64,000 nt of DNA from a virus. Lineage: Duplodnaviria > Caudoviricetes. The position numbers and the translations under genes were made by a program. The stretch is from IMG/VR virus record IMGVR_UViG_3300031851_000001; one strand, written 5' to 3'. Numbering within the stretch: position 1 is the stretch's first letter; every line of letters starts with the position of its first letter. Below are positions 37,962 through 63,181 of the stretch, piece by piece. Under the pieces are notes generated by a model. The model was given only the letters and a program-made list of their open reading frames with translations, made no database searches and had not been told where the DNA came from.

Positions 37962-38129
37962 ATGCCATACATATTACTTCGCAACAAGAGTGTGGTTCAG
38001 CATATTATAATGGTTGGACCAACAAACGATAACTTTAGAGAGTCAAAAGTAGTTGACTTAAAGTTTGAAACATTAGAGGCAGCCAATGAGGTTGCTGAAG
38101 TTTTGAAAGCTAAAGTAAAAGCAGCATAG
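37962..38129 (+). CDS. Small hypothetical protein (55 aa, not in track)
   Basis: MPYILLRNKSVVQHIIMVGPTNDNFRESKVVDLKFETLEAANEVAEVLKAKVKAA. Confidence 0.55.
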   Translation: MPYILLRNKSVVQHIIMVGPTNDNFRESKVVDLKFETLEAANEVAEVLKAKVKAA

Positions 38130-38206
38130 GTTCCTTAGCTCAGCCGGATTAGAGCAAGTGCCTTCTAAGCACTAGGTCGTAGGTTCGAGTCCTACAGGAA
38201 TCACCA
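38129..38206 (+). tRNA. tRNA-Arg(TCT)
   Basis: Cloverleaf, anticodon arm AGTGC-CTTCTAA-GCACT, GGTTCGAGTCC, encoded CCA. Confidence 0.95.
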
Positions 38207-38215
38207 AATCAATAA

Positions 38216-38290
38216 TGGAACGTAGCATAATGGTAATGCATCGCTTTTTGGTAGCGCAGAGTATAGGTTCGAGTCCTATCGTTCCAGCCA
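38216..38290 (+). tRNA. tRNA-Gln(TTG)
   Basis: U1-A72 acceptor TGGAACG/CGTTCCA, loop TTTTGGT, CCA end. Confidence 0.9.
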
Positions 38291-38306
38291 AATAATAGGA
38301 AACAAA

Positions 38307-38489
38307 ATGTGGGTATTAGTCTTTATATATTTTTATGACTCAACACCATACGTAGAAACATATGACGTATATACTTCAATGACTGAATGCTTTAGAGGTA
38401 GAGAAGCATTGGCTGATGAAGTTGGAAAAGGCGCTGGGTATTTTAAACCCGGACAACAAGCAGTTTGCATAAACCTTCAGTCTACATAG
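38307..38489 (+). CDS. Hypothetical protein
   Basis: 60 aa between tRNAs, SD present. Confidence 0.65.
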   Translation: MWVLVFIYFYDSTPYVETYDVYTSMTECFRGREALADEVGKGAGYFKPGQQAVCINLQST

Positions 38490-38498
38490 AGACTGTTA

Positions 38499-38575
38499 GC
38501 CCGCGTGATGGAATTGGTATACATATTTGACTTAAAATCAAAGTTTTGCCGGTTCGAGTCCGGCCGCGGGTACCA
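38499..38575 (+). tRNA. tRNA-Leu(TAA), short variable loop
   Basis: GCCCGCG/CGCGGGT-ACCA, anticodon arm TTTGA-CTTAAAA-TCAAA. Confidence 0.9.
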
Positions 38576-39086
38576 ATACAGGAGAACGACGAATGCCAAT
38601 TAAATTTGATACTGGGTACTGTTTAATAGAAACGGCGTCGTCTTGATTCCCTCCGAGCACGGAATAATGTGGTTGGCCATTCACAATCTTGGTACTTACA
38701 TAGAATCCGACATGCCCTTGCCACCCACTATTCCCACGTGTAAAAATGACTACATCGCCTTGCTGAGGTTTATTAACTGGGTTTCCCCACTCTAAAAACG
38801 AACGAGCCATTAACGGATATTGGCTTACTTCAGAAGAAGTAGGGTGTCCGTTTTGCTCTAAAATCATATTGACAAACGCTGCACACCACTCAGTTGTTAC
38901 AGGATCTACACCAAGTAATTGGTAAATAATATTACGATCTTTTACTTCTTCGAGTTTATGGTATGCAAAGGCTTTGTGAGTTAATGTATGTTTAGTAGGG
39001 ATGTGTACGTGTTGTATAGGAACATTCTCACCTACACATCCTGACAAAAATAATAGTGTCGTAATTATAATAAATACATTTTTCAT
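38538..39086 (-). CDS. NlpC/P60 (TIGR02594-like) peptidoglycan hydrolase, predicted lipoprotein
   Basis: Lipobox LSGC, WCAAFVN, GHVGFY, LGGNQ. Confidence 0.85.
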   Translation of the reverse strand: MKNVFIIITTLLFLSGCVGENVPIQHVHIPTKHTLTHKAFAYHKLEEVKDRNIIYQLLGVDPVTTEWCAAFVNMILEQNGHPTSSEVSQYPLMARSFLEWGNPVNKPQQGDVVIFTRGNSGWQGHVGFYVSTKIVNGQPHYSVLGGNQDDAVSIKQYPVSNLIGIRRSPVLVPAAGLEPAKL

Positions 39087-39101
39087 ACAAGGTTATTTAT
39101 A
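39069..39101. promoter_or_regulatory. Crossing late-type promoters
   Basis: AATAAATA on + (39069-39076) and TATAAATA on - (39094-39101). Confidence 0.55.
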
Positions 39102-40425: not shown

Positions 40426-40739
40426 TTTTTTGTTCCCTTCTGTCTAATAATCTTAGTATTAGATTTGGTTTCTAAGTGTTTTAGACGCATTTCCATATCG
40501 TCAATCTTTTGAGTGATTTTTGGATACTTTTTACGCCAAGCATTTTCCGGCTGCTCTAACCATGTCCAACCCCAACGTTCAACCAAGAAATCCATTCCTC
40601 TATCAAATCGAGCGTATAACCATAAAGCCATTCGCGTGGTGCTGAACCATGTCGAAAACGCGAGTCCAATAATAGACCCGCCTATCGCAGTATAGATCCA
40701 TAAACGATCTCCTGCCATATTAGATAACATTTCCCACAT
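40422..40739 (-). CDS. Membrane-anchored hypothetical protein
   Basis: N-terminal TM, Trp-rich, C-terminal coiled coil. Confidence 0.75.
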   Translation of the reverse strand: MWEMLSNMAGDRLWIYTAIGGSIIGLAFSTWFSTTRMALWLYARFDRGMDFLVERWGWTWLEQPENAWRKKYPKITQKIDDMEMRLKHLETKSNTKIIRQKGTKK

Positions 40740-41470
40740 TATTCATTTCCCTTTGTATATTTACAATAATGGTTCATACCATGATCGTATGCTCCATCAA
40801 AAGGCATTCCTTTTTTCAGTGCCCTCCAACGACCTCTCCATTGGTCTTTAACTCGTTGCCATTTGGAAGCTTTTCTAATTTTTCCGTAGTAATTGATATA
40901 ACGCGGAGCGGTAGTATGTCTATACCCGAGGAATGCGAACGGTACTTTTGGTACGATATCATTATTGTTGACATGCCGATAGTGAGGAATATGATTAAAG
41001 CTTTTAACAAATTTTCGTGTTCCTGCTCTTGGAGATCCATATGTATATAACGCATCACATACGTCAGGCAGTCGGCTCGCTGCAATAGTAGCCATTGCTC
41101 CACCAAGTGAATGCCCAGTTATATAAAACATCTTTCCTTCTAATTTCATTTTTGCCATGGCTGTTCTAATTTCATCCCAGATTTTTTCAATTTCTGTTTG
41201 GAAACCATTATGAACATATCCATAGCCATTTGCTGCTTTATCTGGTAAAGCATTTAAGTCTGCTTTAATATCAGAAAACTCAGAAGGCTCAGTACCTCGG
41301 AAACATAATACTATTTCGCTTTTATTTGAAACGATATGAACTTGAGCTCCATCGTTTTCAATAAATTTGTGCGAAGTGTAACCAACTTTTTTATATGCAG
41401 CCTTGGCTTCTTTTCCATCCATATATGCTATTTGTGCGCATTGCGCCATTAATGAACATTTATTTTCCAT
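40739..41470 (-). CDS. Class 3 lipase / alpha-beta hydrolase
   Basis: FRGT, VHNGF, TGHSLGG (GxSxG), DIVPKVP, H. Confidence 0.9.
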   Translation of the reverse strand: MENKCSLMAQCAQIAYMDGKEAKAAYKKVGYTSHKFIENDGAQVHIVSNKSEIVLCFRGTEPSEFSDIKADLNALPDKAANGYGYVHNGFQTEIEKIWDEIRTAMAKMKLEGKMFYITGHSLGGAMATIAASRLPDVCDALYTYGSPRAGTRKFVKSFNHIPHYRHVNNNDIVPKVPFAFLGYRHTTAPRYINYYGKIRKASKWQRVKDQWRGRWRALKKGMPFDGAYDHGMNHYCKYTKGNE

Positions 41471-41663
41471 TTTGTCTATCCTTTAGAATGTCTTGCATTG
41501 TTTTAGTTGCAGTGTTTATAAACAGACGAGGTGCAATTGCATGTATTAATAATATAGGAACTAATCCTTGTAATTTAATAGCAGCTTTTACCGCGCCTTT
41601 TGCATGTTCTAAACCAGTTTCACCAACATCTTCTAGATGAGCTTTACATTTTTTACTAAACAT
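41460..41663 (-). CDS. DUF6356-like small protein
   Basis: HLEDVGETGLEH ... LLIHAIAP.LF..TA. Confidence 0.6.
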   Translation of the reverse strand: MFSKKCKAHLEDVGETGLEHAKGAVKAAIKLQGLVPILLIHAIAPRLFINTATKTMQDILKDRQNGK

Positions 41664-41824
41664 TAATCTACCTTATCGTTATTGTAATGAGTTGGGTTTA
41701 AGCGCTCATCCATAATAGGTCCAACGTTTTCCCAGTAATTTTTACTCTTCATTACAGTTTCTTGGTATACATGGCAGACAATAGCTCCCATTACAACTCC
41801 TAGTACTAATAAAAACCATTTCAT
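41663..41824 (-). CDS. Small membrane-anchored protein (53 aa, not in track)
   Basis: MKWFLLVLGVVMGAIVCHVYQETVMKSKNYWENVGPIMDERLNPTHYNNDKVD. Confidence 0.6.
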   Translation of the reverse strand: MKWFLLVLGVVMGAIVCHVYQETVMKSKNYWENVGPIMDERLNPTHYNNDKVD

Positions 41825-41973
41825 TTTAAGTATCCATCCCATGATCGTGCGTCTGTTTCTGTTTCTTTACATTTACATTTAGTACAAACATCGTTGTGGC
41901 ATTCATCACAATCTGGTCTATAACAATGACATTTATGTCCGCACGTTTGACATGTTCTTGATGGTCCTTGCAT
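41821..41973 (-). CDS. Metallothionein-like Cys/His-rich peptide (50 aa, not in track)
   Basis: MQGPSRTCQTCGHKCHCYRPDCDECHNDVCTKCKCKETETDARSWDGYLK: 9 Cys, 3 His, GGAG SD, ATGA overlap downstream. Confidence 0.7.
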   Translation of the reverse strand: MQGPSRTCQTCGHKCHCYRPDCDECHNDVCTKCKCKETETDARSWDGYLK

Positions 41974-41982
41974 ATGTTTCTC

Positions 41983-42678
41983 CTAGTTTGCTAACGGGTT
42001 GTCTAATGCTCTCTGTAATTTATTCATTAATGTTGTTTCGAGTTCAGTCATTTCTCTTTTGATTGATGATCTTAAAGCTTCGTTATCGCGTTCAACCTTA
42101 CCTTCCAAATCAGTCATACGACTGTCGTTGGAATCTCTAAGGTTGTTTGCTTTATTGTCGTATTGGTTTTGTAATGCATCACGTTTATTATCAAAACGTT
42201 CTTCAGCATTTTGAATTATTTGTCTTACGTCTGCTTCTAAATCTCGTACTAATTTTTCAACTCTTCTAACTTGCGCGTCCAAATTATTCATTTGGTCTCG
42301 AGTATCAACTTTGCCTTCTCTATTTCGTTTTTCAGCATCATCAATTTGTTTTTGAATTGCAGTTAACTGAATAGTAATTTCTTTATTAACATTTGCTAGT
42401 GATGCTTCTATTTCTTGATTTCTTGTTTCAATAACATCAACATCAATATTTCGCACAATCTCTTTCATGCCCATGTAATCATCATACACTTGGAAAGCGC
42501 CGTATAGTCCACCTAAAATAGAACTGATTAAAGCGAACAACATACCGATCGTTGTGGGAGTCATAGTAATACCTAAGAATTTCATCTTGGTATTTTTTAA
42601 ATTCTCTACCTCAGCTTCAAAATTCTCAATGCCTTCGCCTAAGTCTTTGTCGGCCATGTTGCTCTCCTTAGTTTTCAA
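41983..42678 (-). CDS. Single-TM protein with long coiled coil
   Basis: TM near the N-terminus then heptad repeats. Confidence 0.75.
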   Translation of the reverse strand: MKTKESNMADKDLGEGIENFEAEVENLKNTKMKFLGITMTPTTIGMLFALISSILGGLYGAFQVYDDYMGMKEIVRNIDVDVIETRNQEIEASLANVNKEITIQLTAIQKQIDDAEKRNREGKVDTRDQMNNLDAQVRRVEKLVRDLEADVRQIIQNAEERFDNKRDALQNQYDNKANNLRDSNDSRMTDLEGKVERDNEALRSSIKREMTELETTLMNKLQRALDNPLAN

Positions 42679-43081
42679 ATCCAGAATTGCCGGACTCGTT
42701 TAATTTTCTTAGTTGTTCTAATTCTTGTTGTAGTTTTAAAACTTCTAATCTCTTTTTACGCAATTCTAATTGATATAATGAATTGCAATTAATTCTTTCT
42801 TTTGGTTTATCAAGTGGTATAGTAATTCGTGCATATACACCAACATCTTTTGTATCAGTTCCGCTGCCACTAAAGGGGCTTGAATAATTATCAATAACTC
42901 CAGTAACGCCAAACTCAAAATTCGTTGCACCACCAATAGAGTTTTTACAATCTAAATCTCCAGTACTAATACTATCTTGACCATACGTGGCACCCATCCC
43001 TGGGAGCGATAATCCTATAGAACTACTATCAGCATTCGCCATGCATGGCATCAACAATATACATGTTATAATACGTTTCAT
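42668..43081 (-). CDS. Secreted protein, 2 Cys, C-terminal coiled coil
   Basis: Signal peptide ending ANA, beta-rich core. Confidence 0.75.
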   Translation of the reverse strand: MKRIITCILLMPCMANADSSSIGLSLPGMGATYGQDSISTGDLDCKNSIGGATNFEFGVTGVIDNYSSPFSGSGTDTKDVGVYARITIPLDKPKERINCNSLYQLELRKKRLEVLKLQQELEQLRKLNESGNSGFEN

Positions 43082-43479
43082 TATTCACCAACCTTTTTCA
43101 CTCTAGAACAAATTCTTGAACTTACCGCAGTACGTATCGTATTGTCTTTTTTAAGTTTAGACTGAGAACAAATATATGTTACTATTTTTGCGTCTTGGTC
43201 TCTTATAAAAATATCAAACGAAACAGTACTTAAATAAGGTATCTTCCAAACTTTATATTGCGAAACAAATGGAATAGGTTTCCAATCTTCAGTGAATACA
43301 CCTATTTCATAATATTCAACGTCTGCTCTTTTATTAAACATAGTCATGGTAGTCTTCTGCAGCCCGTCTATATAGGAACCACTAATCTTAGGATAAGTTG
43401 GAACCATTTCGTGAGACGAGGCTGCAGCGGATATTGTAATCAAAACTATACTTATAACGAATATCAATCTTTTTTTCAT
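43081..43479 (-). CDS. Secreted protein, possible PapD-like pilus chaperone domain
   Basis: Signal peptide. The TMTMFN...YYEIGVF..W.PIPF......IP..STVSFDIFIR pattern resembles chaperone domain 1. Confidence 0.45.
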   Translation of the reverse strand: MKKRLIFVISIVLITISAAASSHEMVPTYPKISGSYIDGLQKTTMTMFNKRADVEYYEIGVFTEDWKPIPFVSQYKVWKIPYLSTVSFDIFIRDQDAKIVTYICSQSKLKKDNTIRTAVSSRICSRVKKVGE

Positions 43480-43576
43480 AATCTTTTCCACCTTTATTTA
43501 AGAGCTCCAGTTATGGACACCCAGGCCATCTTCTACAACTTGCACCAGATGAACTTGAACTACTGCTCCCACCATT

Positions 43577-44092
43577 TCATTGAGCGATACACTCCGCTAC
43601 AACGATAGCCGTATAATTACCACCAGCGAAGGCTTTGTTACCACCCATAACTGCTGATGATGAAGTCTTAAACCAAGTTGATCCTGTCGCTGTTAGATCG
43701 TAGCGATCCATCATTCCAATTTCAACCTTGTTAGTTTCATAAGCACTCATACCTGTAGAGTCTGACACTGTTTGCACAACTGTATCACCAGTCCATGTTA
43801 CAACATCAGGTAAACTTGGTGCTGATGAAAAACTGCTTGGCGCAGTGATTTGGGCATAGTACGCATCAGCCAATGAAACATCAAAACGAATTACTGCTAA
43901 TTCACCACCGTCTGATGGTGTTGTAGTAAGAGTATACGCATTAGGGTTACCATATGTACCTGCAGTATCTGTTTGAATAACACAACGTGATTGTACTGTT
44001 CCGTTAATAGGCGTGTCGTTAGCTAAGACCATTGTTGAGGAAATTGTCATAGCTGCTATCGCACCTAATCCAAAAATCTTTTTACTTAACAT
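43577..44092 (-). CDS. Secreted beta-rich protein, Csu/CS1 pilin-like
   Basis: Signal peptide, INGTVQSRCVI N-terminal strand and AGGNYTAIVVAEC C-terminal strand. Confidence 0.5.
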   Translation of the reverse strand: MLSKKIFGLGAIAAMTISSTMVLANDTPINGTVQSRCVIQTDTAGTYGNPNAYTLTTTPSDGGELAVIRFDVSLADAYYAQITAPSSFSSAPSLPDVVTWTGDTVVQTVSDSTGMSAYETNKVEIGMMDRYDLTATGSTWFKTSSSAVMGGNKAFAGGNYTAIVVAECIAQ

Positions 44093-44106
44093 TTTTTGTC
44101 TCCTAA

Positions 44107-45024
44107 TTAATTGTTTAAATTATATTGCATACCAACCATTTGTTGGTGTAATAATTGCTGTGCGAGACCAACCCGTGCGCCGCTATTTGCATCAGGCATT
44201 TTACCATCGGGTATATTAATAACTTCGTTATATGTACCACCCGGTATAGTTACGTTAAGATAAGATCTATTCAATGCAGCTTGCGCAATGTCATTCATTA
44301 TACTAATTCGTTGATTTTCAGCAAAGTAAGTTGCGGTTTCTCCCGCAGCCATTGCATCTTCCAATCTCATTTTTGATCTCTTATCCTCTTTCATCTCAGC
44401 TTCTTTTCTACTATCAGCATCCTCTAAATCATCAGCGTCTTCTTGGACCTCTGCTTGATCGTTGAGTTCAACATCTCCATCTTTTGTCACGTCGTATATA
44501 TCGTCTAAATCATATTCTATTATTTCAGGAACTGGCTTTTTATATCCTGGGCAGTTTGGATCATATTGCGGATCATAACACGGTGTAACTTTATATGTAT
44601 AAACAACACTTGCGCCTTCAACCTTACCTTCTCCAACTACTTCAATACTTCCCATTCCCCATAGTTCTCTTGGTATATTACCTACAGGAACAGCTTTACT
44701 AATTTCCATACCGGATATAGAACCCGGCTTCCAATCATCTCTTTCTCTAAATATATATCCATTTCCATCTATTCTTTCATTCTGAACATAAACGGTTACC
44801 CATTCGCCAGTTTCTTTTTGTATCGTATAGCGGTATATTACGTTTTGTATATCAATCCCAGGAACCCCTTGTGGCAAAAGGTCAGGCATAGACCATTGTA
44901 AAGCTTGGTCTGCTACTGCATTTCCAGTATAACCATAATATGGCGCAATGCTCTTAGTCTCCTCAGAGGAAGAGTAAGAAGGCCAGAATGCCAGCGCCAA
45001 CAGCAGGAGCAACTTTTTCTGCAT
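44107..45024 (-). CDS. Secreted hypothetical protein
   Basis: Signal peptide, CYDPQYDPNCPGY, acidic coiled coil. Confidence 0.75.
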   Translation of the reverse strand: MQKKLLLLLALAFWPSYSSSEETKSIAPYYGYTGNAVADQALQWSMPDLLPQGVPGIDIQNVIYRYTIQKETGEWVTVYVQNERIDGNGYIFRERDDWKPGSISGMEISKAVPVGNIPRELWGMGSIEVVGEGKVEGASVVYTYKVTPCYDPQYDPNCPGYKKPVPEIIEYDLDDIYDVTKDGDVELNDQAEVQEDADDLEDADSRKEAEMKEDKRSKMRLEDAMAAGETATYFAENQRISIMNDIAQAALNRSYLNVTIPGGTYNEVINIPDGKMPDANSGARVGLAQQLLHQQMVGMQYNLNN

Positions 45025-45550
45025 CTATAGGTCCCATTAATTTAAGTTCTTTTTTAGTTTCTGCTACGTGAGTTTCCCAACCAAGTTTGGCAGCCTCACC
45101 AATTTGTCCATCGTACGGGCAGGGTGTTCCGGCTTGCATCATTGCGTCAAAAACACCAGTATCCTGACACATCACGGATACCGCTGCCACCTTCATTCCC
45201 ATATCATATAATGTTTTTGCATTCTTTAATCTCTGACAATTTTCTTCAGTGAATGTACCACCACCAGAAATACCTAGGATCTGCGTTTGAACCGCAGCTG
45301 ATACGCCGATAGTACATAAGTCCGTATTATTGCCTGCTGAAAATTGTGGGGAGATTGCTGTAGGAGGTGGTTGGTTAATTGTAGTTTCCATCGTACCAGT
45401 AGAATTGATATTACTGTCAGTACCTGATTTTGTACATACGTAACCTGTTGGACATTCAACATCTTCTGCTGAAGCTATCGTTCCCATAGTAATGAAAATC
45501 GCGATCAAACATATTGCGTATAACCATACCATTGCTTTTTTAACAAACAT
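44963..45550 (-). CDS. Secreted Cys-rich protein with C-terminal hydrophobic anchor
   Basis: Signal peptide, 6 Cys in the mature part, C-terminal VGAGILAFLLFL. Confidence 0.75.
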   Translation of the reverse strand: MFVKKAMVWLYAICLIAIFITMGTIASAEDVECPTGYVCTKSGTDSNINSTGTMETTINQPPPTAISPQFSAGNNTDLCTIGVSAAVQTQILGISGGGTFTEENCQRLKNAKTLYDMGMKVAAVSVMCQDTGVFDAMMQAGTPCPYDGQIGEAAKLGWETHVAETKKELKLMGPIDAEKVAPAVGAGILAFLLFL

Positions 45551-45616: not shown

Positions 45617-45628
45617 TATTTATAAATA
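45617..45628. promoter_or_regulatory. Palindromic bidirectional late promoter
   Basis: TATTTATAAATA reads TATAAATA on both strands. Confidence 0.75.
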
Positions 45629-48064: not shown

Positions 48065-48141
48065 CAGGGTGTAGCTCAGTATGGTAGAGTGTCGCACTTG
48101 GAATGCGAAGGTCGTTGGTTCAAGTCCAGCTACCCTGACCA
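48065..48141 (+). tRNA. tRNA-Pro(TGG)
   Basis: CAGGGTG/TACCCTG-ACCA, anticodon arm TCGCA-CTTGGAA-TGCGA. Confidence 0.95.
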
Positions 48142-48243: not shown

Positions 48244-48585
48244 TTATTTTTTGCCTACTGCATCAGCAGCAAAGAATGCTGAAACCAATACCGCAATTGA
48301 TGCAAAGTATGTTGGTGCAATATCAGCAACTAATCCAGCCGCTGTGTCTAAGTTTAACCAAGAAGTTAAAATGATTGCTAATGGATATACTAATAATCCA
48401 ATAAGTGAAAACCAAGCCATTTTACGGATAGCGTCACGCTGAGCGTCTTTATCCTCTAATGCTTTGCGTTTGAATTCTAAATGCATTGCCATTTCTTCAG
48501 CTGAGATATGACCGTCTCCGTTCACGTCAATAGCTGCCGCTGCTTCTGCATCGATAGTTGTCTTGTCTGCCATGTTATTCTCCAT
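48244..48585 (-). CDS. EF-hand + 2-TM protein (holin-like)
   Basis: Canonical loop DVNGDGHISAEE followed by two hydrophobic helices. Confidence 0.7.
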   Translation of the reverse strand: MENNMADKTTIDAEAAAAIDVNGDGHISAEEMAMHLEFKRKALEDKDAQRDAIRKMAWFSLIGLLVYPLAIILTSWLNLDTAAGLVADIAPTYFASIAVLVSAFFAADAVGKK

Positions 48586-49869: not shown

Positions 49870-50448
49870 ATGGCAGAATTTAGTGGCGCGGTTGACGCGG
49901 CGTATTACATGGATGAAAACTACAGCTTAATTGAAGTTGTATATACAAATCCTAATAACGAAAAAGTTAATTACATGGTTGAAGTAGGAGACAATGCAGA
50001 TTATAATGCGTTAGTTTCAGAAGGTTGGGATCCAGAAAAGCTTGTTGAAACTACTTCAGAATTTAAAAGAGAAAGCGCTCGTGAATTTGGTGAATTAGTT
50101 AATGCGCAAGCGCAAGCCTTGGCAGAGGAAATGCTAGGAATGCGTTTCCTTATGGAACGTAAAGAAATTCTCGAAAAGCAAACAGCTGAGCTAGACCAAC
50201 AGACACAAGAAAAAGAAAATCAACTATTAAGCCTTGACCAAGATGTTAAAGTAAAAACAAACAAAGTTGACCACGCAGTGTATGACTTTATTCGCGACAA
50301 TAACGAAAGCAAAGAAGAACTCTTTAAGTTTAAACTTTGGGCATTAGAACAAGACGTGGTTAAAAAATCTGACAAATCAATTAAGTCTTCTATACGTAAG
50401 TCAACTCGTATTACATCAGCAATGGCGATTTACAACGATCTCTTATAA
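49870..50448 (+). CDS. Coiled-coil protein, possible fibre chaperone
   Basis: Follows the fibre-like gene. Confidence 0.5.
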   Translation: MAEFSGAVDAAYYMDENYSLIEVVYTNPNNEKVNYMVEVGDNADYNALVSEGWDPEKLVETTSEFKRESAREFGELVNAQAQALAEEMLGMRFLMERKEILEKQTAELDQQTQEKENQLLSLDQDVKVKTNKVDHAVYDFIRDNNESKEELFKFKLWALEQDVVKKSDKSIKSSIRKSTRITSAMAIYNDLL

Positions 50449-51165
50449 AAAACTTGTAGGTCTATTGGTTTGAAAAGGATTAAGACACGCTATGATAAAG
50501 TCTACTTCCTTTTTGCTCAATCCTGTTTCTAAAAGTTTTGTCGTAAATTTTGGTACTATATTTTTGTAAGTTGTTTGATAATTTTTCTTGGCTAACTCTG
50601 AATTTTTCTCATCATTTAAATATGGTACACTACCTATCATGCAAGTATATATTACACAGGCATACGCAAAGTAATCATCTGTATAGTGTACGTTAGCTAG
50701 TAAACTTTCATATGGTCTACTAAAATGTCTACCTGATCCTAACAAAGGTGTGAGAATTACATCAAAACGCACTGAAGCATCAAAATCAAAATACCTAAAC
50801 TGGCCTTCGTTATAAGCTATGTTTTTAAGAGTATAGTCTAATAAAATATAATTACTGCTATGAACAATATCAAATAATTCTTTAGTGTATTTTGTGAATT
50901 TTCTTATAAGTTCTTTAGTTGGTGTGATATGAACACAGTCGAGTGGTTCACCTTCAACCCATTCTTTTATAAGTCTGCCATTGTTATAATCTATTATTTC
51001 TGGCAAAGACTCGTGGTTTATATGTAGGAGTGCTTCGTATTCATAATACGCTTGGTCTTTGTAACAGTAAGTTACATTATCTTTTTTAACGCGATATACG
51101 TTGCGCGTTGATTTTGGTTTAACACGCAAATGCTCGTCGAACATGACTTCATAGCCTGTTAACAT
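50443..51165 (-). CDS. Ser/Thr protein kinase-like
   Basis: CYK (VAIK-like Lys), E helix, LLDYTLKNI catalytic loop, DFD, D-x-F/Y-A. Confidence 0.75.
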   Translation of the reverse strand: MLTGYEVMFDEHLRVKPKSTRNVYRVKKDNVTYCYKDQAYYEYEALLHINHESLPEIIDYNNGRLIKEWVEGEPLDCVHITPTKELIRKFTKYTKELFDIVHSSNYILLDYTLKNIAYNEGQFRYFDFDASVRFDVILTPLLGSGRHFSRPYESLLANVHYTDDYFAYACVIYTCMIGSVPYLNDEKNSELAKKNYQTTYKNIVPKFTTKLLETGLSKKEVDFIIACLNPFQTNRPTSFL

Positions 51166-51177
51166 TTTTTAATATCC

Positions 51178-51199
51178 TATAAATACATCTATATTTATA
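51178..51199. promoter_or_regulatory. Crossing late promoters
   Basis: TATAAATA + 51178-51185 and - 51192-51199. Confidence 0.75.
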
Positions 51200-51207
51200 A
51201 TGAAAGT

Positions 51208-52401
51208 ATGACAATGAAATGTATAGTTCCGGAAACCGGGATTACAATTAATCCTATTGGCGAAATGGTTATATGTTGTGCAGGTGACAACGTAGCGCTT
51301 TCGCATATCAAAGATGTGGATAACCTTACCGAGTTTTTTAATGGCGAAGTGTATGATAAACTTCGTTCTGACTTCAAAGAAAAGTCGTTTCCAAAACAAT
51401 GTAACGTATGTTGGAGACATTGGGATGCAGGTCGTATTGCTAGGTTTGACTCATACAACCGATTTAGCTTTCCTACATATGAAGAAGATTTAGCGTCTGA
51501 CGTTATTCCTATTAGATTTCTTGAGATCACAACAAGTAACATATGCAATCAAATGTGTGTCTCTTGTTCTGGTAAGTATTCTTCTAAGTGGTCGCCATAT
51601 GAAAAAATGGCGGTTGAGTCTGGTCTAACATGGCGCAACGAAAACCACAAGTTCCATACCAAAATGTATAAAATGACTAAGGCTGATGTTGATAAGGTAT
51701 TGGATATAGTTCCACACCTGCAGCATTTAACTATTAAGGGTGGTGAACCTTTTGCTGATCCTAATAACATAAAGATACTAAAAAAGTTAGCCGAAACTAA
51801 TCCCGGCTGCAGGGTAGAGATATGCACAAACATGCAACTCGTAACTAACACAGTTATTGAAATATTGCATCAGATAAACGAAGTACATATTCAAGCAAGC
51901 ATTGACGGCATACATGAAATGTATGATTGGATACGTGGAGGTAACTTTAAGAAGACAGTAAACAACATTAAGAGATACCACGAACACTCTGGACGTAAGG
52001 TAGTTATTGTATCAACAGTATCTGTATATAATTGGATGCACCTTCCAGAACTTATCGACTATTGGAAAACTATTGAGGGCGTGGATAGAATTAGCATGGC
52101 TAACCTTGTTACATTCCCTAAATATTGTAGTCCATGTTACCTAGACGAACACCACATAGAAGAAGGCAGAAACAAACTATTTGATTACTTAAAAGATTGG
52201 GATAAAAAGTCAGACACTTATTATACGACAGACAACCTACATTTATCAGGCATGAATAATGTATTGAGTGTGGTACAAGGTGATGATGATATTAAACTAA
52301 TACAAAAACGAATGATACAATGGATCGACTTTTGTTTAGTCGCTCGTGAAAACAATGAAGATATATATGAGTTAGCACCATACTTAGAGGATTACAGATG
52401 A
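51208..52401 (+). CDS. Radical SAM protein with N-terminal SPASM/twitch-like Cys motif
   Basis: CNQMCVSC, IKGGEP, N-terminal C..CC...CxxC. Confidence 0.88.
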   Translation: MTMKCIVPETGITINPIGEMVICCAGDNVALSHIKDVDNLTEFFNGEVYDKLRSDFKEKSFPKQCNVCWRHWDAGRIARFDSYNRFSFPTYEEDLASDVIPIRFLEITTSNICNQMCVSCSGKYSSKWSPYEKMAVESGLTWRNENHKFHTKMYKMTKADVDKVLDIVPHLQHLTIKGGEPFADPNNIKILKKLAETNPGCRVEICTNMQLVTNTVIEILHQINEVHIQASIDGIHEMYDWIRGGNFKKTVNNIKRYHEHSGRKVVIVSTVSVYNWMHLPELIDYWKTIEGVDRISMANLVTFPKYCSPCYLDEHHIEEGRNKLFDYLKDWDKKSDTYYTTDNLHLSGMNNVLSVVQGDDDIKLIQKRMIQWIDFCLVARENNEDIYELAPYLEDYR

Positions 52402-53468
52402 GTTGGGATTTTTTTCAATCCAATAGAACAATACCATCTCAACATAAGATGGTTTCTTGTTATGCTCCATTTAATCATATGCGAATCCGTAGAAACGGAG
52501 AAATGCACCCATGCTGTTTTTCAACACAAAAAACACGTTGGAAAAAAGATGAAGTTAGCCTAAAAGATTATTGGTTTGGAGAGTTAAACCAATCATATCA
52601 AGAAGCATTATTAGAAAATACTCTACACGACGGTTGCCAAAAAGTATGCGGTGCTAGAATAAATTCTAAAATAAAGCCGCCTATCAATGAATACGATCAT
52701 AATGTTGGTGACGATAGACTTAAACACGCATTATCATTATCTTATCCTAGAATTTTTGAGTTCGAAATATCAAATCTTTGCAACATGGCTTGTCCAATGT
52801 GTATGGGTGAGTTAAGTTCAAAGCATATGTTAGGACGCGATAAAAACTTAAAAGTTTATGACCCAAACACATTTGACGATGATGAAAATTTACAATCGTT
52901 ACTAGAAGAATTTAAAGAATTTGTTCCACACCTTGATGAAATAAGATTTGTTGGTGGAGAACCTTTTTCGCACAAAGCGTTATATAAACTATGTAGTATG
53001 ATTGCTAAAATTAATCCTAGTATGCGTATTCAAGTGTGTACTAATGGAAGTGTGTTTAATAAAAAAGTTCTTAAAATATGTAATGAAAATAATTTAAAGT
53101 TAACCATATCTGTTGATACAGTTGTTCCAAAAGAATATAGCCAGATTAGAATTGGTGGTAATTATGAAGAGACTTATAATAATGTGAAGAGATTTGGCGA
53201 ACGTTGCAAAGTTACAGTAAACGCGACTCTTATGTCTATAAACGCATTGAATATAGACAAGTTATTTGAATATGCTATGGAAAATGAATATGGTGTTTTC
53301 ATAAACACTTATGATAGATCAGGCAGAAGTCATACTGAAGATTGGAGCATAAGTACAATGAAAATGGTTGACAGGCAAGCTTCAGTTGACAGGCTTACTG
53401 CTTTATTGGGTGATGAAAATTATAAGAGACACTATGAAGAAATTAGAAAGATTATTAATTTGTTATGA
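52398..53468 (+). CDS. Radical SAM protein with N-terminal SPASM/twitch-like Cys motif (paralog)
   Basis: CNMACPMC, FVGGEP, CYAP...PCC...CQKVC. Confidence 0.88.
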   Translation: MSWDFFQSNRTIPSQHKMVSCYAPFNHMRIRRNGEMHPCCFSTQKTRWKKDEVSLKDYWFGELNQSYQEALLENTLHDGCQKVCGARINSKIKPPINEYDHNVGDDRLKHALSLSYPRIFEFEISNLCNMACPMCMGELSSKHMLGRDKNLKVYDPNTFDDDENLQSLLEEFKEFVPHLDEIRFVGGEPFSHKALYKLCSMIAKINPSMRIQVCTNGSVFNKKVLKICNENNLKLTISVDTVVPKEYSQIRIGGNYEETYNNVKRFGERCKVTVNATLMSINALNIDKLFEYAMENEYGVFINTYDRSGRSHTEDWSISTMKMVDRQASVDRLTALLGDENYKRHYEEIRKIINLL

Positions 53469-62720: not shown

Positions 62721-62861
62721 TTGACATTGTTTGAAAACCGTATATAATAGATTTATCTACTAAACAATAATAATAGTTGTTATAATGGCTGTAACAAAAT
62801 AGTAACAGTATTTTTATTAAAATGGAAATCTATTGACATTTTAGCTCTACTGTATTATATA
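62721..62861 (+). promoter_or_regulatory. Tandem sigma70 promoters for tmRNA/porin
   Basis: TTGACA at 62721 and 62833, each followed by a TATAAT-like -10. Confidence 0.65.
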
Positions 62862-62865
62862 TAAC

Positions 62866-63150
62866 TAGTGAACGTTGAAATGACGTGAATACGGATCGGA
62901 CCTCGGGGCAGTACCGAGCATCTCCACCAAATTTACTCTGTAGGGTAAAAACTGATAATTTACTTTGTAGAGTAAATTTGATGGGGATGAACAAGGATCG
63001 ACGGACGGAATAGCTTAATGGAGTTCATCGGGTGATCGCGTATAGATCAATTAAACTAAATGCAAATGAAAATTTCGCACCATCTGGATTTGCTCTAGCA
63101 GCATAATCACAGGGGGGTTGTCCACTTACCTAGCAACAGAAAAGTGGTAC
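62866..63150 (+). ncRNA. ssrA: Circularly permuted (two-piece) tmRNA
   Basis: Acceptor piece ends CTCGG-GGCAGTA-CCGAG-CATCTCC-ACCA (62929). Coding piece starts GGGGATG (62983) with G3-U70. Tag 63062-63106 reads ANENFAPSGFALAA*. Confidence 0.93.
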
Positions 63151-63181
63151 TTAATAAAACTATTACAAGGAAAAAGGTAAC

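Follow-up and report, generated by a model that had tools for sequence, protein, structure and literature searches.

A mobile six-gene cassette of exported and membrane-anchored proteins in large marine phages, with a predicted chaperone-subunit pair and no visible usher

Archaic chaperone-usher (CU) pili, represented by CsuA/B-CsuC-CsuD of Acinetobacter and CupE1-CupE4-CupE5 of Pseudomonas, combine an exported beta-sandwich subunit with an exported chaperone of two immunoglobulin (Ig)-like domains and an usher, and the subunit and chaperone genes are adjacent in one operon; in CupE-type pili, a 13-residue N-terminal donor strand lies next to a conserved disulfide (PMC10104325). Two other described systems bear on parts of the comparison made here: the two-component spanins of phages (lambda Rz/Rz1, T4 PseT.3/PseT.2), which are encoded by two genes, and the MSP/VAP domains, which are cytosolic and eukaryotic and either bind peptides or self-assemble. 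We describe a cassette of six genes, A to F, on the minus strand of a 64,000-nucleotide stretch of DNA (the window, meaning the whole stretch that was analysed) from IMG/VR virus record IMGVR_UViG_3300031851_000001, which belongs to a divergent T4-like phage with a G+C content of ~36%. The cassette is real, very widespread and mobile, and no description of such a phage system was found in the literature searched. The reading that we prefer, and to which we give somewhat less than an even chance, is that A to F form one late, mobile envelope cassette that would build a periplasmic or periplasm-spanning structure at the end of infection. The genes and the motif that precedes them are listed below (minus strand throughout; aa, amino acids; ORF, open reading frame).

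45617-45624, minus strand: T4-type late-promoter motif TATAAATA, 66 nt upstream of A
44963-45550, minus strand: A, 195 aa; signal peptide, Ser/Thr/Pro-rich linker, four-cysteine domain, charged linker, hydrophobic C-terminal tail
44107-45024, minus strand: B, 305 aa; signal peptide, ~165-aa N-terminal domain, variable acidic linker, conserved C-terminal segment
43577-44092, minus strand: C, 171 aa; signal peptide, 12-residue mature N-terminal segment, beta-sandwich
43081-43479, minus strand: D, 132 aa when read from the ATG at 43479 (136 aa for the longest ORF, which begins with a GTG at 43491)
42668-43081, minus strand: E, 137 aa; signal peptide, C45-C99 pair, C-terminal coiled-coil helix
41983-42657, minus strand: F, 224 aa from the ATG at 42657, which the alignment favours (the longest ORF starts at a TTG at 42678 and gives 231 aa)

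Each ORF was found where an earlier note on this DNA had placed it, as six packed genes running from 45550 to 41983. The export signals or anchors that the note had seen in all six products were recovered in alignments of 26-37 homologues per protein, from which signal peptides were read: A, B, C, D, and E carry cleavable signal peptides with a conserved n-h-c layout and A-x-A-type end sites, and F carries a membrane anchor. Neighbouring genes overlap or are separated by a few bases, the exception being 97 nt between C and D. The start of E overlaps the stop of D by one base, and E is translationally coupled to D. The overlap between A and B spans 62 nt in the window (44963-45024, minus strand), where it encodes the hydrophobic C-terminal tail of A and the signal peptide of B in two frames, and at least 62 nt in all of the 89 distinct full A-F modules that were collected. 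An attenuator between C and D was considered and rejected, as the 97-nt gap contains neither a terminator-like site nor a stable fold (fold z-score -0.04).

These export signals bear on the possibility that A to F are ordinary virion (capsid or tail) components misread as exported, which we regard as highly improbable. The late-promoter motif of the operon would suit virion genes, and in the pelagiphage HTVC115P the relatives of A, B, and F follow glycine-rich, fibre-like genes. However, five of the six proteins keep their A-x-A signal peptides in every homologue. Conserved cysteine pairs are present as well, and these suggest oxidative folding in the periplasm. The earlier note had allowed that its reading would fall if the products turned out to be ordinary capsid or tail components; no A-F product matched a capsid or tail family in Pfam or PHROG (indeed, none of the six matched any Pfam family), and phages whose capsid genes are unrelated carry the same cassette.

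To follow the cassette across phages, IMG/VR was searched with C and with A as seeds. The C-seeded search gave 80 loci, in which genes B to F keep the same order in ~77-80 of 80 and A does so in 70 of 80, many loci being cut off upstream. At least 597 stretches encode a relative of A, and among the best 80 of these the order A-B-C-D-E-F is present in every locus with room for it (43/43); the genes therefore travel together, as the reading put forward in the earlier note required. The flanking genes (lipase, SNase, small ORFs) vary among the C-seeded loci. Mean pairwise identity over the 89 modules is 0.61 for A, 0.58 for C, 0.56 for E, 0.48 for both B and F, and 0.46 for D. Clustering of metagenomic proteins at 90% identity yields at least 1409 clusters for C and at least 6033 for E, all of them unnamed, and DNA nearly identical to the window is present in seawater metagenomes of more than a dozen studies. 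Among 50,697 phage records, no match was found by blastn with the region or by tblastn with C. A search with C of 185,579 species representatives returned four loci only (a pair of contigs in a single genome bin labelled Rhodobacteraceae, one locus in Polaribacter, and one in an archaeal metagenome-assembled genome, or MAG), which we take to be mis-binned phage DNA.

Four carrier genomes illustrate how the conservation of the cassette compares with that of the phages around it.

G005: 119 kb (56% complete); polymerase 74% identical to that of the window, C 72% identical
G004: 152.7 kb, complete; polymerase 46% identical, C 60% identical
G002: 328 kb, with terminal repeats; polymerase 28% identical, C 66% identical
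G001 (locus L113; IMGVR_UViG_3300021958_000023): 173.5 kb, complete; no family-B polymerase, C 61% identical

G001 encodes a family-A DNA polymerase and lacks both a family-B polymerase and a gp23-type capsid gene; it represents a lineage of large, non-T4 marine phages in which the cassette is also present. Because the cassette is far better conserved than its carriers, it moves horizontally between unrelated large phages, is under unusually strong constraint, or both. A mean identity of 46-61%, despite polymerases that are 28% identical or of another family, implies that the cassette does something important and portable.

The clearest structural likeness is that of D to the chaperones of CU systems. 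D consists of a signal peptide followed by one Ig-like domain of ~105 aa with a C108-C128 pair, and in the alignment its mature chain opens with an invariant His in HEMTPTYP. The AlphaFold2 (AF2) model (predicted local distance difference test, pLDDT, 86) was compared with known structures in three ways. The top of the Foldseek list is made up of the N-domains of PapD, DraB, FaeE, FimC, SafB, and Caf1M together with MSP domains (E 6e-4 to 1e-2, probability 1.0). VIA aligns 96-102 residues, from strand A1 to G1 and over residues 29-136, with residues ~4-120 of FimC, DraB, Caf1M, SfaE, PapD, and CsuC as well as with MSP domains, at Z 8.0-9.0. The nearest named Atlas clusters are FimC chaperones (template-modelling score, TM, 0.61-0.62). 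D superposes on PapD domain 1 with the seven-strand s-type Ig fold. D is therefore, by its predicted fold, a one-domain member of the PapD-like fold class. It thus resembles the archaic CU chaperones as an exported Ig-like partner with a PapD_N fold and differs from their two-domain build; no PapD_C domain and no Pfam match were found in D, and no relative of at least 246 aa was seen, the latter being weak evidence. MSP/VAP domains resemble D as stand-alone domains of the same fold and size (Z 8-9, TM 0.57); D differs from them in its export, its disulfide, and its pairing with a pilin-like gene. One Foldseek match was a Cu-only superoxide dismutase (SOD)-like subunit, and the invariant N-terminal His of D is a candidate histidine-brace copper site.

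The likeness of C to a pilin is looser. Its 12 mature N-terminal residues are nearly invariant and unstructured in the monomer model, Cys37 and Cys168 are invariant, and the C-terminal strand reads G-x-Y-T-A-x-V; the first and last strands that the earlier note had quoted as pilin-like are thus present and nearly invariant, together with the two cysteines. Like the archaic CU pilins, C is an exported beta-sandwich of ~145 aa in which a short N-terminal segment precedes a conserved Cys and the last strand has the form G-x-Y...V-x-V. In C, however, the C37-C168 disulfide links the first and last strands, whereas the pair reported for CupE1 (C41-C85) occupies another position. The AF2 model of C (pLDDT 80) is nearest, among named Atlas folds, to DUF4402 (TM 0.56) and to Csu-type SCPU (TM 0.48-0.51 over 118 residues), and the protein-language-model score against an SCPU cluster is 0.95. 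Foldseek lists Fim, Pap, and Csu subunits among weak matches (E ~1e-2, TM 0.3-0.4), and the best VIA matches in the Protein Data Bank (PDB), at Z 7, are generic sandwich folds. C had no Pfam match at E<=0.1 and five distant relatives had none at E<=0.01, SCPU (PF05229) included; a PF05229 search of the carrier genomes matched neither carriers nor controls and carries no weight. Profile searches of the PDB with C, E, and B gave nothing below E 0.3. Only 115 relatives of C emerged when 1.84 billion representatives were searched by profile, and the most distant of these relatives keep only the signal peptide, a G-T-V-x-x-x-C start, and an F-P-x-G-x-Y-x-A-x-V-x-V-x-C end. On these models, the description of C as pilin-like is plausible but not proven. 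The pilin-chaperone reading of the earlier note, and the fold comparison by which it was to be judged, therefore come out unevenly: D has the PapD_N/MSP fold, although it amounts to half a chaperone, and C has SCPU among its neighbours, although the match is weak and equalled by generic folds.

Complex prediction connects the two proteins. The C-D pair reaches an interaction prediction score from aligned errors (ipSAE) of 0.65, versus 0.00 for the best of three controls, a level attained by 58 of 80 solved complexes and by 2 of 110 mismatched pairs. Separate runs share at least 95% of contacts with a partner pLDDT of at least 89, and the interface comprises 114-118 contacts. In the model, D 122-128 pairs in register and in parallel with C 163-170, D also touches C 39-41, and the invariant mature N-terminus of D lies at the interface as well. 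The last strand of D is thus predicted to slot between the first and last strands of C, which is the geometry of donor-strand complementation and is shared with the archaic CU chaperones, as is the parallel orientation to the last strand of the subunit. The multimer prediction that the earlier note had proposed as a check accordingly points to C-D binding by strand insertion.

This large interface, including the mature N-terminus of D, would also suit a stable, non-polymerising two-chain Ig heterodimer that binds a periplasmic or outer-membrane target of the host, with A, B, E, and F merely its operon-mates. As a monomer, C is modelled by AF2 as a sandwich that is already closed, and the invariant starting His of D hints at a binding or metal site. 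We nevertheless think a free-standing heterodimer quite unlikely: wherever a locus has room the gene order is fixed, and conservation is highest in A, C, and E, which argues for one machine, and the nearly invariant free N-terminal segment of C is left without a role.

The usher is the component that most clearly separates the cassette from the archaic CU systems. The earlier note saw no usher, and none was found in a wider search: PF00577 matched an Escherichia coli control, whereas neither of the complete carrier genomes searched (173.5 kb, 328 kb) gave a match at E<=1, and no usher was present among nine large or unassigned ORFs of the window scanned with Pfam or among the six cassette proteins, the cassette having no ORF longer than 305 aa. 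In the bacterial family to which the MAG with two cassette contigs belongs, 3 of 81 genomes have ushers, so a host usher is unlikely to be generally available, this host link being weak. The Pfam families behind the pilin-chaperone reading of the earlier note (SCPU, PapD_N, PapD_C, and Usher) were not matched by sequence, and no chromosomal, CU-linked relative of C was present among the 185,579 species representatives. C and D are adjacent in one operon, as in the archaic systems; the cassette, in contrast, resides in lytic phages and brings four more exported proteins, none of which has a CU counterpart. It is therefore not a member of the chaperone-usher pathway, though C-D appears to act like its first step.

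The missing usher also weighs on the idea that C is exported through an E oligomer or a host pore to form a fibre or coat on the infected cell. Such a structure would serve in adhesion, hide the receptor, or block superinfection; the earlier note had raised a fibre, adhesin, or receptor mask. C resembles a pilin, its N-terminal segment is about as long as CupE1's 13-residue donor strand (PMC10104325), a chaperone-like D is present, and the amphipathic strands of E around an indel loop show the pattern of a membrane hairpin with an exposed loop. Yet the carrier genomes lack an usher, the linked bacterial family has few (3/81, with the weakness of that link in mind), E would have to form a pore or the host supply one, and exclusion functions, which are usually early, sit badly with a late promoter. 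A surface fibre or coat is thus a rather improbable outcome.

The remaining four proteins are A, B, E, and F. The four-cysteine domain of A (~100 aa) is very conserved, with 42 invariant columns in its aligned core; A matches phrog_20531 at 1.7e-14, and this domain is the sole part of the cassette with cultured-phage relatives, at 43-55% identity in pelagiphages and, for the roseophages CRP-207 and CRP-810, 34-35%. The A relatives of these phages are true homologues, and every one of the genes concerned (HTVC115P gp54/gp53/gp49, Mosig_00202, and those of CRP-207 and CRP-810) is annotated as hypothetical. B carries a C-x8-C loop in its N-terminal domain, which we read from the sequence as beta-rich, and a conserved C-terminal segment of ~60 aa that ends in MQY; by sequence, it has no match in Pfam, PHROG, or the PDB. 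A hidden pilin or chaperone domain in B was rejected, as hhalign of B with C and with D matched signal peptides only; the hhalign match between E and F was likewise limited to signal peptides. In the alignment of E, two amphipathic beta-strands flank a loop whose length varies by insertions and deletions, and the signal peptide has no lipobox; E matches phrog_37374 at 5.8e-8, and a language-model Atlas search, restricted to named clusters, gave no usable match. F begins with a short acidic stretch in the cytoplasm, crosses the membrane by one helix, and continues in the periplasm as a coiled coil whose length varies (144-237 aa for the whole protein across homologues), and it ends in an invariant peptide, LQRALDNPLAN.

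Several loci hold part of this set. HTVC115P keeps A (gp54), a B-like protein with the same C-terminal segment (gp53), and F (gp49, hidden Markov model E 6e-32) in the same order as the cassette, and C, D, and E were not found in the 10-kb locus examined. One contig of 43% G+C (L089) has the order A-B-F-C-D-E; a second distant lineage (L087) has an E fragment followed by two C-like paralogues, so that E accompanies C in both. A metagenome contig of 56% G+C (L084, positions 100-1572) carries a phage lysozyme gene, an Rz-like gene with an embedded frame for an Rz1-like lipoprotein, a distant C-like gene, and a D-like gene whose mature product starts with His. The C-D pair of L084 thus stands at the end of a classical lysis cassette. 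Within the 89 modules, extra genes are inserted only at the E/F junction (20/89). The cassette is therefore composed of two joined, separable units, A-B-F and C-D-E. The earlier note had missed these two units, the presence of the cassette in unrelated phages, and its tendency to adjoin lysis genes.

Endolysin genes are frequent neighbours of the cassette. Cell-wall hydrolases of three families lie within the 6-7 kb flanks, in 43 of the 89 modules altogether (SleB-type with signal peptide in 25, a GH19 endolysin with a peptidoglycan-binding domain in 15, and CHAP in 4), and such different families at a conserved place are the mosaic pattern of lysis regions, although this concerns neighbourhood only. 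An EF-hand protein with two membrane helices follows F directly in 39/89 modules (e.g., L170:10789-11178); this protein could be a calcium-sensing, holin-like protein. In the podovirus MW202481, an A-related stretch, a B-like gene annotated "tonB", and an F-like ORF lie just upstream of the lysozyme gene. The corresponding genes of the window are as follows.

48250-48528, minus strand: EF-hand two-helix membrane protein, 2.7 kb away on the other side of the cassette
41460-41663 and 41821-41973, minus strand: a DUF6356 protein and a Cys-rich 50-aa protein, on the same strand, downstream of the cassette
40739-41470, minus strand: class-3 lipase, on the same strand, downstream of the cassette
38538-39086, minus strand: CHAP-domain hydrolase, with its own TATAAATA at 39094

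The lipase, DUF6356, Cys-rich, and CHAP proteins of the window could together form a lysis or envelope-attack cluster.

Given these neighbours, the cassette might act in outer-membrane disruption or lysis control, with F as an i-spanin-like protein, E or B together with A as the outer partner, and C-D tuning or timing the event. F shares the i-spanin layout across 27 aligned homologues, with a coiled coil of variable length, a likeness to Rz that is one of architecture only, without homology. E ends in a coiled coil, and in most loci it is coupled to F. As with spanins, endolysin genes lie nearby in many carriers, those of three families within a few kb in 43/89 loci, and a late-promoter motif stands upstream of A; the B-like and F-like genes of MW202481, the position of C-D in L084 directly after lysozyme and Rz/Rz1, and the EF-hand protein after F (39/89) agree with such a role. 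Several observations count the other way. L084 already holds a canonical embedded Rz/Rz1 pair beside C-D; no conserved lipobox Cys follows the signal peptides of E, B, C, or D in the alignments, which leaves E without the mark of a spanin lipoprotein partner; and about half of the loci have no hydrolase in their flanks. Spanins are two genes and the cassette has six. Its conservation is much higher than we would expect for spanins, and a mean identity of 46-61% across phages with 28% or no polymerase identity is unlike that of fast-evolving lysis genes. We therefore consider a role in outer-membrane disruption or lysis control unlikely, if less so than the other alternatives.

Signals upstream of A suggest when the cassette is expressed. 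The palindromic late-promoter motif that the earlier note had placed ahead of the operon is present: TATAAATA reads on both strands, and the palindrome is shared between gene A and a divergent SNase gene. The motif is not enriched in the window overall (14 found versus 11.8 expected). In 37 of 86 related loci, a copy stands no more than 160 nt upstream of A, far above the chance rate of roughly 2% that we extrapolate from the motif density of the window, and inside the modules it is found 14 times in all modules together. From this motif, we propose that the cassette is late-expressed. Four RNA libraries yielded contigs that match cassette and flanks equally, and such contigs carry neither strand nor level information.

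Taken with the two-unit organisation, these features can be drawn together in a mechanism for the preferred reading, that of one late envelope cassette. The C-D-E unit would work like a stripped-down chaperone-subunit system: after Sec export, D would capture C by donating its last strand between the first and last strands of C, and the 12-residue N-terminal segment of C would then replace the D strand in a neighbouring C, giving a polymer without an usher. E is a candidate partner on the outer-membrane or peptidoglycan side. The A-B-F unit, which stands alone in pelagiphage podoviruses, would supply the inner-membrane side, with A as a tail-anchored, Cys-rich protein, B as a secreted two-domain protein, and F as a bitopic coiled coil, and both units together might build a structure late in infection, near the lysis genes. 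In its most specific form, the cassette would make an usher-independent C polymer that is nucleated by one-domain D, docks to an oligomeric E hairpin in the outer membrane and to an inner-membrane platform of A-B-F, and is exchanged as a unit by unrelated phages of marine Alphaproteobacteria to breach or remodel the envelope at release; this full picture is possible but doubtful.

A number of points weigh against the envelope-cassette reading in either form. None of the CU families was matched at the sequence level, as described above; for C, generic Ig, CBM, and MSCRAMM folds score as well as pilins do, and the AF2 monomer is a closed sandwich. The C-D prediction may partly reflect the memory that the model has of solved chaperone-pilin complexes. 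We infer both the outer-membrane site of E and the exchange between C subunits. The link to lysis consists only of neighbourhood in about half of the loci, which are phylogenetically non-independent, and transcription of the cassette does not follow from the RNA-library contigs, the flanks being covered alike.

The wider window places the cassette in its phage and host. The family-B DNA polymerase is 43% identical to gp43 of cyanophage S-PM2, PHROG matches include gp46-, gp41-, gp39-, and gp52-type genes, and ORFs are assigned by PHROG to DNA polymerase, topoisomerase, helicase, and SbcC. The window also contains a full-length transfer-messenger RNA (tmRNA) gene:

62813-63151, plus strand: permuted tmRNA of the alphaproteobacterial type, Rfam alpha_tmRNA 104.5 bits, ARAGORN tag ANENFAPSGFALAA

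The type of this phage tmRNA and the relatives of protein A in pelagiphages and roseophages together point to a marine alphaproteobacterium as the host. A phage-encoded tmRNA hints at manipulation of trans-translation by the phage. Four tRNA genes (Arg-tct, Gln-ttg, Leu-taa, and Pro-tgg) lie at 38129-38575 and 48065-48141 on the plus strand, and the tRNA-Leu gene shares sequence with the 3' end of the CHAP-domain ORF, which is on the opposite strand. At 50443-53468, a minus-strand gene with a protein-kinase domain adjoins two radical-SAM/SPASM genes, an unusual accessory set for a T4-like phage.

Of the marine-phage gene sets that await characterisation, the cassette is one of the more abundant. 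If C and D bind as predicted, they would be the first chaperone-subunit pair described outside bacterial CU operons, none having been found in the literature searched; half a chaperone would then suffice and an usher be dispensable, which bears on the evolution of donor-strand systems. If the link to the lysis genes is functional, the cassette could help explain how phages of streamlined marine Alphaproteobacteria handle the outer membrane.

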